DNA of 64,000 nucleotides from Microbotryum violaceum. Its lineage: Eukaryota. Below the pieces are notes generated by a model, which did no database searches, was not told the origin of the DNA, and saw only the letters and a list, made by a program, of their open reading frames with translations. The stretch is taken from contig CDLV01000016.1 of NCBI GenBank assembly GCA_001244265.2, positions 806,001 through 870,000 of the forward strand. Reading direction: 5' to 3'. Within the stretch, counting starts at the first letter, position 1. Each line of letters opens with the position of its first letter. Position numbers and translations under genes: made by a program. Below are positions 34,977-39,744 of this stretch, in pieces.

Positions 34977-37331
34977 TCAAAGAACCTGAAACTTCGCCCC
35001 CTGCCTCAACTTATCCGCCGTCAAACTCCAACATTCATCAATCATCGCGGCCCTGAACGTATTCGGCCCCATGACATCCTTCCGTTTCGCCGCGATTTCA
35101 GCGGCGACGTTGATGGCAGTGATACTACGGGATGAAAAGAGAAGCGTGTAAGCTTCTGTTTTGGAAATCGTTGGCCTTGGGGGAAAACGATAGATGGGAA
35201 GTGTGAACTCACCCTGTTACGGCGGCCAAGAAAGCTCTCGAAGCGATCGTTTCGTCCTTTTCGAGCGGTAGGGATGCGAAACAAGCCACAGCGCTAATAA
35301 AAACGAGTAACAGCCAAGTTGGAGCAACGCACTCGGTCCAAACTCCATTGCGATGGCCGAGACCAACTCACGTCGAGGCCATACACCCACTGCCCGTGAT
35401 GATGCCTTGGTAGTCGTGACCGTTTGATAACTTGACGACAACTTCGCCGTCGGAGATGTAGTCCACTTCGCCAGACATGGCGACGGTGAATTCTACACGA
35501 CGTAAACAGCCATCAGTCTCCGGTTCAGCGGACGGCCAAAACGTCGACCGAAATCGATCGCCCCTCGTTTTTCAACTCACTTTCCCTCCGCGCCAAATCC
35601 CTGACCACACTCGCCGGATCGGCGAACCCCTTCCCAACCGAATCGACGCCTCTAGCTTTGACCTCCTTGCTGCCCAACAAACTACCGATTTCCCCGGCGT
35701 TGCCTTTGCAAACACTGACTCTAACATCACCCATCAACTGATCCGCCATCCCTTTTCTATGGACCGTCGCTCCACACCCCACTGGATCAAACACCACCAA
35801 TTTGCCGACCCTGTTCGCGGCTCGGCCAGCTTGTCTCTGAGCTGAGACTTGGTCCAAAGTCGCTGTTCCTAAATTGAGCAATAGGCAACCCAAATACCCC
35901 GCGAGTTGATCCAGTTCTTGAGGAACGACGGACATGATGGGAGAACATCCAAGAGCGAGGGTAAGGTTCGCACAATCGTTCATGACGACTTGGTTCGTCA
36001 GATGGTGGACGAGGGTACGGTGTTCCTCACTTGTCGATTGAAGACGGGTGAATAAATTGATCACTTGGTCCAAGAGGGTTGGAGTGGAGTGGAGTGAAGT
36101 GGGGAGGGTGAGGCTGAAGCGTGGGGAAGTGCGGAATTGGCTCAGGAGCGAGCGAGCGGCTTGGTCCGGTTCGGGGGAGGCGGCGATGGAGGATACGACG
36201 GCTAGACCATCGAGATGGCGATACTTGTTTGAGCCTGGCATAGCTGCAGGGGTTTGGTAGAGTATGTTGGGAATCGTTTCGGGTGTGACGCCGCCTGTGT
36301 GCAGAAGGACGCTATCTCAGGCCCCGCCCCCCCTGTCCAGCGAAAAGCCCGGGCTGAGAAGAGACTTTGCTACTCACCAATAACAACAACTTTGATCTCA
36401 CTCCCCCCCAAGCTCGCCAACAAATCCCTCACACCTCTCACCCCAAGAACAGGGCTCAAATCCTTCTTTGTCTTTGTCCCATAACAGGGTCCCACACCAA
36501 TGTAATCGACCGTGCCCTCGGGATAGGCCAAAACGGTATCCAATTCTTCGACGGTGTTGATGGAGACGCCGAGAAGTTGGTCCGGACCTAGGAGTTGTCG
36601 AGCTTGAGGGGCGGGAAGGTCGGATTGCCCTACGTGGAGACCGCAGGATAGGAGGAGTGCGATGTCGAGACGGTCGTTGATGATGAGGGGGACCGAGTAC
36701 TGGAGGAGAAAGGGGTTAGGGGAAGGTCGGGATTAATTTCCCGCGGGAATTAGCTCGGCGACCGAGATGGGGGAAATTTTGTAAGGATTCGTCCTCAAAG
36801 CGTCGTGTATCCGGAAAGGGAGCTTGCCAAGTACTTTCAAAAACTCAGTCGCCCCTCCCCATCCAAAAAAGTGACCTGTACCGAGCTGCTGCTCCTCAGT
36901 CTGCCGGTGGTCTGTCGATCTCGTCAGGTCGAGGAGGGGCGTAACGATTCGCGTGGAAGGGATATGGAGCATATCCTCTATACCGGTTCTCAGACTTTGA
37001 ATCGACGCCCCTCCATCCATCACGAGGACGCCTACCGTTCTTGAAGCTCCGCACACCGCCGGCCCCACCCACATTCCCGATTGCCAGTCCCCCCGAATCT
37101 CACCTTATCACAAACCTCCTTCGATCTCTTGGCGACTTGATAAAACTCTCTTCCGCCCACATCCTTCTCCCTAATTTGCACGACCGTCACGCCTCCTTTC
37201 AAAGCTGATTCGAGGTGAGTGAGATAGTACGGCGTTGGGTTGAGGTCGACGTCATTTGGGTTCGACGAGGGGGGAAGTAGCTCGCGACCTGTGACGTAGT
37301 AGAGGGAGTAGTCGATCGCGGGTTTGACCAT
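34977..37331 (-). CDS. THI6: Bifunctional thiamine-phosphate synthase / hydroxyethylthiazole kinase
   Basis: IDYSLYYVT, VQIREK, IINDRLDIA, LHVGQSD (ThiE part), then HHLTNQV, DPVGCGAT, KGNAGEI, RGVDS, ITGSGC (ThiM part). Intron 1 is about 404 nt (37103-36700). Confidence 0.96.
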
Positions 37332-37721
37332 TATTGATGAGGGAAGCGGAGGGGAGGTAAGGGGGAAGAGGGAACAGGAGAGCCGAAGTGGGGCGCTATT
37401 AGAATGATCGGCAGGGCAGCTCGTACCTCCTTTCGGACAGCCTCTATTAAGCGCAGGAGTCTCGATTGGCGCCCGATCACTCGAAATACGCAAGAAGACG
37501 GAGATGATTACAGGAATTTACATTCTACACGGAGAACATCTACAACGTCGACCCTACAAGTCCAGCCTTATCGAAGGTTTCGATGCCGATCCCAAGACGG
37601 CGCCAGCGTGTGCGGAGCAGAGCAGAGCAGGGAAGGAAAGGAGAAGAGTCAGTACACGGGATCAATAAATAAATAATGGACCAAGCCAAAATGGTCGAGG
37701 GGGAAGGAGAGAGCCCAGGAA

Positions 37722-37925
37722 GAATCGATATCAGATAGGAGCTGTGACGAACAGGCACTCGGGGTCAGTTCTCACGAACGCACAGAAAAACGAGTGCCAA
37801 CTCGCAGAAGGGGGCTTACCGAAAGACTATTTTGATAGATATTAGAATCAGCATCGTACCCCTTTTGGGGAGGTAACTCAGTGTGAACTATGCATGATTA
37901 CTCGTTGAGATCATCCTTTCGAATC
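37722..37925 (-). ncRNA. SNR60: Box C/D snoRNA, snR60 (Z15/U80-type) homologue, interrupted by a 78-nt spliceosomal intron (37819-37742)
   Basis: Box C AGGATGA (37917-37911). D' guide GCATAGTTCAC then A then CTGA (37881-37878). C' ATGCTGA. Spliced D guide TAGTCTTTCG|CTCCTAT then CTGA (37734-37731). Terminal stem GATTCGA/TCGATTC. The guides are complementary to the conserved LSU rRNA sequences GUGAACUAUGC and AUAGGGGCGAAAGACUA. Confidence 0.9.
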
Positions 37926-38387
37926 TTTTGGGGCGGAGAAGGGAGGGACGTGTCGTTTTCCTCTGGTTGCGGAGGAGGAAAACGGTAGCCCAAGGAGGGC
38001 TAGAGATAGGGGGACGGAGACGGGAGAGACAAGCACCCGAGAGGTGGGAGAGACGAGCACCAGAGAAGTGGAAGAGAAAAATTACCTTGGGTGGGTCTGC
38101 GTGAGTCTTACATCGTGCGGAAGGAGCGACCGGAAGGGAATCTAGCGGCGAAGCGAGTTGCGGGAGGGAAAGCGACAGACAGGCGCACACGAGAGGCACA
38201 CGTCGTTCGAGTGCGCATTAGCAACCAAAGTCATCCAACTCTAACCAACCCTAACCAGCCCACCACGGATCGGAAAGAGTATTTCGGGCTTTTTGAACGA
38301 ACGTATCAACACGCTCTCGCAGTTGCATCGGTGTGTTCCAGGGAATATCCTAGGCCTTGGCTACCTTGCTAGCCCATCATCTGATCG

Positions 38388-39744
38388 ATGAACACCCCAT
38401 TCACCTCCACCTCCACCCCCGTTGATCCCAACCGTCCCTCGAAGCTCGGCATCGTCCCCTCCTCCCGCTCGACTCTCCAACTTCGTCGACCTACAAAGAA
38501 AGAAGTCTCCACTGAAGACCCGCCCCGGACAGATGAAGTCGACGCAGAATTCGATGAAGACGACGAGGAAATCGAACATGAACAGGATATCGATACGTAT
38601 GGGATTGCGGGGAGGTCAGTTTGCTGTCCGTCTTTCGCAACAAGTCGGGGTTAGCTCACGCTCTCTCTCTCTCTCTCACGAAATTTCTTCCGTGACAGGA
38701 CATGGGAAGCCGCCTACTTGATGAAACGCTACTGCAAACCACCATACGCATCCATCTCCAAGCTAATATTCGAACCCCCCTGCCCTCTATTCGTCCAACC
38801 TCCCTCCACCGAAGACTCTTCCTGCCCCCCTCCTTCACACAGAACGAAGCAGCGAAAACGAACCGTCGTCGAAATCGGTTCTGGAACGGGATACCTCTCC
38901 CTCCACCTCCTTCCCTTTTTGAAAGAGTCGGATCGGTTGGTCGTCACGGACCTTCCAGAAGTGTGTCCTTTGTTACGCACGAACTTAGGTATTTCGGCAA
39001 CCACCGAGCAAGGGGAAGAACGAAGGAGCGACGGGAAGGGCAAAGGCTCGCGTGTTCAGACTACGTTTGGGGATGTCAAAGTGAGACCCTTACCTTGGGG
39101 CGATCAAGAGGCTTTCGAGAAGCTCGAGAAGGAATTCGGTTTGTTTTCCTCGGCCGATGACGACTCGAACACAGGTTCAGGTCCGGACTTGATCCTCGCT
39201 TCGGACCTTATCTACTTCCCCTTCCTATACCCCGGTCTATTACGCACCTTGATTTGGTTGACCCAACCACGGAAGAAAGGGTTTCGGAAAGATGCGACTG
39301 ATACATCGAGGAAGGAACAGGATGCTCCCCAAGTCGTGCTCGGGTACAAGATCCGCAGTTTGCCAAGAGAAGAACCGTTTTGGAAAGCTTTTGGTGAGTT
39401 TCAGTTTCGGTGATCGGGCCCGTCGGACTTTTGTCCAGGATCACACACTCAACTGGGGATGAGTTACAGGGATTTGGTTCGATTTCCGACCCGTGTACTA
39501 CCGACCCGTCCCCACCTCAGCCCAAGACCCAAACACCACCTTCCCCTCTCCCGCCGCCGACGAAGATCACTGGCATCGTTTCGGTGAAACCTCCGAAGGC
39601 CAAAACCAGCTCTTCATTTTCGTATGCACTCGCAGACCCAAAACTTACACTTGGGATGTACCGAAAGAGGATGAGGCGTTGATGAATGGTCTAGGGTCGG
39701 ATGATCAGTTCGAGACCTTGTTGTTACTGGGGATGGAGTGCTGA
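38388..39744 (+). CDS. METTL21/Efm6-type (Methyltransf_16) protein lysine methyltransferase
   Basis: YGIAGR|TWEAA, VEIGSGTG, VTDLPEV, LPWG, ILASDLIY, GYKIRS. Two introns. Confidence 0.88.

Follow-up and report, generated by a model that had tools for sequence, protein, structure and literature searches.

Box C/D snoRNAs direct methylation at the fifth-letter position, and in their snoRNPs the C/D motif and the terminal stem recruit the core proteins, with exonucleases trimming the RNA to the protected particle. Among small structured RNAs, introns are known in U3 and U6. The locus at 37925–37722 on the minus strand of the window (the whole stretch of DNA analysed here, 64 kb long, whose positions are used throughout) raises the question of whether an mRNA-type intron can also lie inside the antisense element of a methylation guide. 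A preliminary description of this DNA had claimed a box C/D guide whose box-D antisense element becomes contiguous only after splicing; the anatomy of the sequence and a joint in a contig of sequencing run X1 both support that claim. We consider it probable that the locus is an ascomycete methylation-guide gene of the snR60/Z15 box C/D family that has acquired a spliceosomal intron inside its box-D antisense element.

Anatomy of the gene

Reading the sequence from 38200 to 37500 on the minus strand revealed the full set of parts of an snR60/Z15-type box C/D snoRNA at 37925–37722. The coordinates assigned to these parts beforehand were all correct on minus-strand reading. From 5′ to 3′ along the transcript, with RF00309 denoting the snR60/Z15/U80 family in Rfam, the parts are as follows:

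37918–37925, minus strand: 5′ half of the terminal stem, GATTCGAA, from reading of the sequence
37911–37917, minus strand: box C, AGGATGA, with G rather than U in the second place, from the sequence and the RF00309 alignment
37883–37893, minus strand: D′ antisense element, GCATAGTTCAC, whose first 10 letters equal the RF00309 consensus
37878–37881, minus strand: box D′, CTGA, two letters (CA) past the 10-letter consensus guide, one of which the covariance model treats as an insertion
37859–37870, minus strand: internal hairpin CCCC-AAAA-GGGG between D′ and C′, from the sequence and seen in predicted folds
37848–37853, minus strand: box C′, TGCTGA (one mismatch to UGAUGA), which aligns to the C′ region of RF00309
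37820–37829, minus strand: 5′ part of the box-D antisense element, TAGTCTTTCG, at the end of exon 1; the RF00309 alignment is good to here and then breaks
37742–37819, minus strand: intron of 78 nt, GTAAGC...AACTGAC...CACAG, from the sequence, skipped by an X1 contig and retained by an X8 contig
37735–37741, minus strand: 3′ part of the box-D antisense element, CTCCTAT, at the start of exon 2, which together with box D equals RF00309 consensus positions 80–90
37731–37734, minus strand: box D, CTGA, from the sequence and the orthologue profile
37722–37730, minus strand: 3′ half of the terminal stem, TATCGATTC, from the sequence and the pairing energy

The stem halves GATTCGAA and TATCGATTC pair over 4 + 4 bp with one U–U mismatch (−7.8 kcal/mol). 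Once the exons are joined, box C to box D measures 109 nt and stem to stem 126 nt, and the short stem that must flank boxes C and D is in place. The D′ guide, GCAUAGUUCA, is identical to the family consensus and is followed, after a 2-letter spacer, by the CTGA that a D′ guide requires. A guide directly before box D that can pair with the LSU rRNA, UAGUCUUUCGCUCCUAU, is present only with 37819–37742 removed.

The removable segment itself has GT..AG borders and a branch site near its 3′ end, with the branch A at 37765, 23 nt before the end of the intron. Its GTAAGC, AACTGAC and CAG motifs presumably fit the fungal splice consensus. As a separate observation, two intron-internal segments on the minus strand, GGCACTCG (37792–37799) and CGAGTGCC (37753–37760), could form an 8-bp stem with the branch site in the loop.

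Family assignment

An Rfam scan of the 64-kb window returned no match at curated thresholds, nor at E ≤1. In a permissive scan of 37600–38050 (451 nt), RF00309 stood at the top of 6 matches with 22.2 bits (E 0.31), a score at which the genomic sequence does not reach the gathering cut-off of 41 bits. The alignment to RF00309 is good over model positions 1–79, breaks exactly at TTTCG/GT, and past the break is completed by a spurious 3′ end inside the intron. The printed consensus at positions 80–90, CUCCUAUCUGA, is identical in all 11 letters to the start of exon 2. Covariance-model scans had been expected to miss or truncate this gene, and they do, giving nothing at thresholds and a permissive alignment that breaks at the 5′ splice site.

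We collected orthologues by a pattern scan of metagenomes with the two conserved guide cores, which gave at least 117 loci and 124 matches. Among the 124 matches listed, 105 have box D 5–8 letters past TTTCG, mostly as CTCCTATCTGA, another 2 (on contig L006) have a degenerate box D, and 17 are unrelated. None of the 107 snR60-like matches listed continues with GT after TTTCG or has an intron at the same site, and all 105 listed orthologues with an intact box D carry the guide uninterrupted. Every one of the 12 intronless orthologue loci tested against RF00309 reaches the cut-off (43–70.6 bits). The family is a known one and the locus works like a member of it; the cut-off, we infer, is missed here only because of the intron.

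After exclusion of 5 of the 105 matches, in which no box C was found or the locus ended, the remaining 100 reduced to 68 unique intronless sequences, from which a profile HMM was built. This HMM scores the joined exons at 38.6 bits in an end-to-end match from box C to box D, and finds the unspliced sequence as two separate pieces of 19.9 and 4.4 bits. The score arises partly by construction, as the guide cores formed part of the search pattern; the letters of exon 2 did not belong to it. The nearest orthologues among the matches listed (L050, L029, L001 and L105) have 90–91 identical positions to the 141-nt query. They also carry the GGATGA variant of box C, which occurs in 12 of the 68 unique metagenome orthologues among the matches listed.

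Two snR60-type copies per contig were observed on the metagenome contigs L005, L006, L010, L030, L045, L093 and L095. The two copies on L006 each carry a degenerate box D (CTAA and CCGA), as expected of decaying duplicates.

Evidence for splicing of the 78-nt intron

Contigs of four sequencing runs (X1, X2, X4 and X8) were aligned to 36300–38400. None of the 13 runs listed is on record as RNA, and X1 is labelled 'RNA? (a guess: may be DNA)'. A 275-nt X1 contig matches the window with 0 differences from 37982 to 37820 and then from 37741 to 37630 ('skips 78'), and the ends of the joint, CT..AC on the plus strand, are GT..AG on the minus strand. This is exactly the 78-nt junction that had been predicted from the sequence; it occurs in what is probably an RNA run and is missing from the DNA-like contig of X8. 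The latter, a single contig of 11 kb, spans the whole of 36300–38400 with the 78 nt retained and without the joint, and may be the window's own source. The two runs together supply what splicing calls for, precise removal in RNA and presence in DNA, with the RNA status of X1 remaining a guess. A second X1 contig extends the transcript to 37454, and of the 2101 bases examined X1 covers only 37454–37982.

The joint might have arisen without splicing, from the DNA of a strain that lacks the 78 nt or as an assembly artefact. A single contig carries it, and the RNA label of its run is a guess with no run on record as RNA. We nevertheless judge such an origin very unlikely: the missing segment is bounded by GT..AG at exactly the borders predicted beforehand and contains a branch site 23 nt from its end, there are 0 differences across 275 + 197 nt of non-coding flank, and X1 coverage is confined to one interval, like that of a discrete transcript. 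RNA splicing is the simplest reading of the X1 joint, on the basis of one contig from one run guessed to be RNA.

The neighbouring gene provides a positive control. X4, from a related organism with 90–95% likeness, has a 404-nt skip there which, shifted by 3 letters, corresponds to a GT..AG intron at 37103–36700, the first intron of that gene; the approach thus detects real splice joints. An X2 contig at 37705–37982 is unspliced, but X2 also covers the inside of the neighbour's 404-nt intron. The run is therefore probably DNA at low coverage, and the contig is no evidence on unspliced RNA.

Pairing of the joined guide with LSU rRNA

The 17-letter LSU motif was found once in the viral collection, on a 4-kb contig (L118) whose bases 1–135 are a fragment of eukaryotic LSU rRNA (122 bits to LSU_rRNA_eukarya, model positions 874–1008). 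At gathering thresholds, a scan over the full contig reported no match; the fragment became visible only when bases 1–135 were scanned, and the contig may be chimeric. The joined guide forms 17 contiguous pairs with positions 44–60 of L118, one of them G–U, at −27.4 kcal/mol; 1000 shuffled joined guides gave a mean of −10.3 (sd 2.3) and a best value of −19.7. The preliminary description's 17-bp match with one G–U is thereby borne out in computed pairing with a eukaryotic LSU fragment. Counted back from box D, the fifth letter of the guide is paired to the second G of GGGG. The unspliced RNA had been thought to keep 7 guide nucleotides at box D; the number needs correction to 8 pairing letters, since the last G of the intron pairs too. 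With only these 8 letters available, methylation of the G should require splicing.

Could the unspliced RNA nonetheless be the working form, a long box C/D RNP that uses the D′ guide only, with the region before box D idle or directed to another target? Exon 1 holds boxes C, D′ and C′ together with the D′ guide, and the terminal stem can form across the self-folding intron. These points are countered by the contig assembled from X1, which is spliced, by the letters of exon 2, which exactly complete a conserved guide, and by the pairing of the unspliced RNA with the LSU, which is weak and interrupted (−15.6 kcal/mol with interior loops for the 20 letters before box D). We regard a working unspliced form as highly improbable, and take the spliced RNA to be the one that carries the complete guide.

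For the pair of targets, we scanned the prokaryote genome collection for the complement of the D′ guide followed by a gap of 65–95 nt and the 17-letter motif, which yielded at least 47 stretches. The complement, GTGAACTATGC, is present in 47 of the 47 eukaryotic LSU rDNA stretches among the matches listed, and the gap between the two target motifs is exactly 80 nt in all 47 listed stretches (34 distinct sequences). All 4 stretches tested were confirmed as eukaryotic LSU rRNA (1376–2184 bits). That the target motif is likewise conserved for this gene is inferred from these 47 listed stretches, together with the fact that 105 listed orthologues carry identical guides. The LSU motif itself is found in none of the 117 metagenome snR60 loci among the matches listed.

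The stretches that carry the rDNA (L119–L165) are 47 short contigs in bacterial isolates or MAGs, one of them also with 5.8S rRNA. These contigs seem to be eukaryotic contaminants of the prokaryote assemblies.

The 80-nt gap sets the target G 91 nt downstream of the second A of GAAC. In yeast, the positions given as targets of the D′ and D guides of snR60, 25S 817 and 908, are 91 apart according to the available portion of PMC5824354; the same distance separates positions 797 and 888 for N. crassa CD48 (PMC2780460, available in part) and positions 815 and 906 for A. fumigatus Afu-263 (PMC2377427, likewise). Because the 91-nt spacing is common to the yeast, N. crassa and A. fumigatus pairs, the two guides here are the snR60 pair.

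The assignment of the D′ target is less certain by one letter. The spacer before box D′ is 1 letter in 58 of the 68 orthologues and 2 letters here; ATCAGA, found in 9 of the 68, represents the same D′ register as here. Strictly counted from box D′, the fifth letter selects the initial A of GAAC, which precedes the target G by 92 nt and lies one residue 5′ of the A817 equivalent, so the assignment to Am817 is possibly off by one. The preliminary description had the guides select the equivalents of Gm908 and Am817: the snR60 pair and G908 stand, and A817 may have to give way to its 5′ neighbour under the strict count.

The arrangement of boxes exceeds chance, in that the predicted junction is the one found, exon 2 has the consensus letters, the joined guide pairs with the LSU rRNA and the HMM matches the joined exons.

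Transcript and genomic context

Two features frame the snoRNA in the window:

37454–37982, minus strand: spliced X1 transcript, from the alignment of two overlapping contigs
35525–37331, minus strand: THI6-like gene (hydroxyethylthiazole kinase + TMP-TENI), first intron 37103–36700 (404 nt)

In the X1 transcript the snoRNA is preceded by a leader of about 57 nt and followed by a trailer that runs for at least 268 nt; the whole, once spliced, measures at least 451 nt. This spliced molecule is a precursor and not the mature snoRNA. The X1 and X2 contigs both end at 37982, which is a weak hint that the transcript starts at this position. The THI6-like ATG lies at 37331, 391 nt downstream of the snoRNA 3′ end on the same strand, and the nearest atlas clusters of this gene are ascomycete. 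On the plus strand a gene begins near 38655, which places the snoRNA in a divergent intergenic region. The X1 transcript ends about 125 nt before the THI6-like start codon and could therefore be the THI6-like leader.

This arrangement bears on another explanation, in which the spliced RNA would be long and non-coding, or else the 5′ leader of the THI6-like mRNA, and would carry a redundant or decaying snR60; a working snR60 would then reside elsewhere and no functional small RNA would be made here. The transcript does extend at least 268 nt past the snoRNA toward the ATG at 37331, the contigs contain no mature ends, the D′ spacer is one letter off, boxes C and C′ have one mismatch each, and a second snR60 elsewhere in the genome, such as an intact intronless paralogue, cannot be excluded. 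Decay is, however, at odds with the letter-for-letter agreement of both antisense elements and box D with the family consensus and with the intact terminal stem. The GGATGA box and the two-letter D′ spacing are also features of the intronless orthologues closest to this gene among the matches listed, whose scores exceed the Rfam cut-off, and X1 assembled the snoRNA transcript but no THI6-like coding region. We consider this explanation unlikely, and retain a functional guide gene as the preferred reading.

An 84-nt block at 37535–37618, between the snoRNA and the THI6-like ATG and within the X1 transcript, is about 90% kept in an X4 contig, whose flanks on either side do not align at that level. 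No Rfam family was found for this block. An Rfam scan of 37250–37740 detected no second snoRNA or riboswitch, and only one lncRNA match at chance level.

Origin of the intron

No intron is present at this site in the 107 listed snR60-like matches, so the intron looks like a lineage-specific gain; no intron-carrying relative was found among the matches listed. Reading of the sequence revealed no duplicated flank at the insertion site. We also considered multiplication of an introner-like element and rejected it, there being no second copy of the intron in the window or the metagenome loci and its fold being no more stable than shuffled sequences (z −0.58).

Proposed maturation pathway

We propose that transcription would start near 37982 and run past the snoRNA to at least 37454, the extent seen in the contigs, and that the spliceosome would excise 37819–37742, as the observed joint suggests. 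Ligation of the exons would then create the 17-nt guide directly before box D, as can be read from the sequence, and would also shorten the distance from box C to box D and the 3′ stem half to 109 nt. Box C/D core proteins may assemble on this RNA and nucleases may remove leader and trailer, leaving a snoRNA of about 126 nt, a step that we infer. Judging by family and base pairing, the mature snoRNA is predicted to direct LSU 2′-O-methylation at the G equivalent to yeast G908, and its D′ guide would on the same grounds direct methylation at either the A equivalent to A817 or the residue immediately 5′ of it. Accumulation of the mature RNA of about 126 nt, the methylation and its dependence on splicing are all inferred, as the contigs show neither ends nor abundance.

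The intron might in addition act as a switch, regulated retention yielding snoRNPs whose methylation is confined to one of the two snR60 sites. Boxes C, D′ and C′ and the D′ guide are all contained in exon 1, whereas the guide for the G site needs splicing, so retention would leave one site. We think it quite unlikely that the intron serves in this way. If it did, site-specific methylation of the ribosome would be tied to splicing efficiency, and might also be linked to transcription into the adjacent thiamine-biosynthesis gene.

Comparison with known systems

Members of the snR60/Z15/U80 family (RF00309) share with this gene the two antisense elements, the order of the boxes and a pair of LSU targets about 91 nt apart. 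In the portions of the reports available, N. crassa CD48 is 91 nt long and intron-encoded (PMC2780460), and A. fumigatus Afu-263 is 96 nt long (PMC2377427). The guide is unbroken in described snR60 members, whereas here a 78-nt intron interrupts it 7 letters before box D; the snoRNA also resides in the exons of a longer transcript instead of within a host intron. A tblastn search with three pieces of the THI6-like protein and the plus-strand neighbour gave no match in the 117 metagenome loci listed. With no shared neighbours in these loci, and with CD48 intron-encoded, the genomic location appears to be new too.

Canonical mRNA-type introns whose removal is a precondition for the RNA to function have been described, as far as the available text goes, in the U3 snoRNA genes of S. 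cerevisiae, N. crassa and other fungi (PMC5832005). U3 does not guide methylation, and in its genes the introns interrupt the 5′ stem-loop, in contrast to the intron described here, which splits the antisense element of a modification guide. In the S. pombe mamRNA/snoU14 precursor, as described in the accessible part of PMC12508059, a functional element likewise exists only once exons are joined, namely a hairpin for the RNase III Pac1 across the exon–exon junction. As far as that text indicates, the junction element in mamRNA/snoU14 is a processing signal outside the snoRNA, whereas here it is the snoRNA's own guide and the C/D terminal structure. An intron-split microRNA of Solanaceae also has an intron between the functional halves of a small regulatory RNA precursor, but in another RNA class, kingdom and processing pathway (PMC11706861, available in part). 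A search of the full-text literature and a 2023 review of maturation yielded no report of an intron within a modification-guide snoRNA; most subscription journals and supplements were outside its scope, and absence is unproven.

Significance

The gene extends the small set of structured non-coding RNAs that need mRNA-type splicing, U3 and U6, to an rRNA methylation guide. Its intron sits in the very part that reads the target, and one conserved modification of the ribosome would hinge on the spliceosome. It is also an unusually clean case of intron gain, an insertion without duplication: since the guide must match invariant rRNA and is unbroken in 105 of the 105 listed orthologues, the sequence before the insertion is known to the letter. 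Standard covariance scans find nothing at this locus, so apparent losses of snoRNAs in fungi may include split genes, and a blind spot in the annotation of conserved snoRNAs in fungal surveys is thereby exposed.
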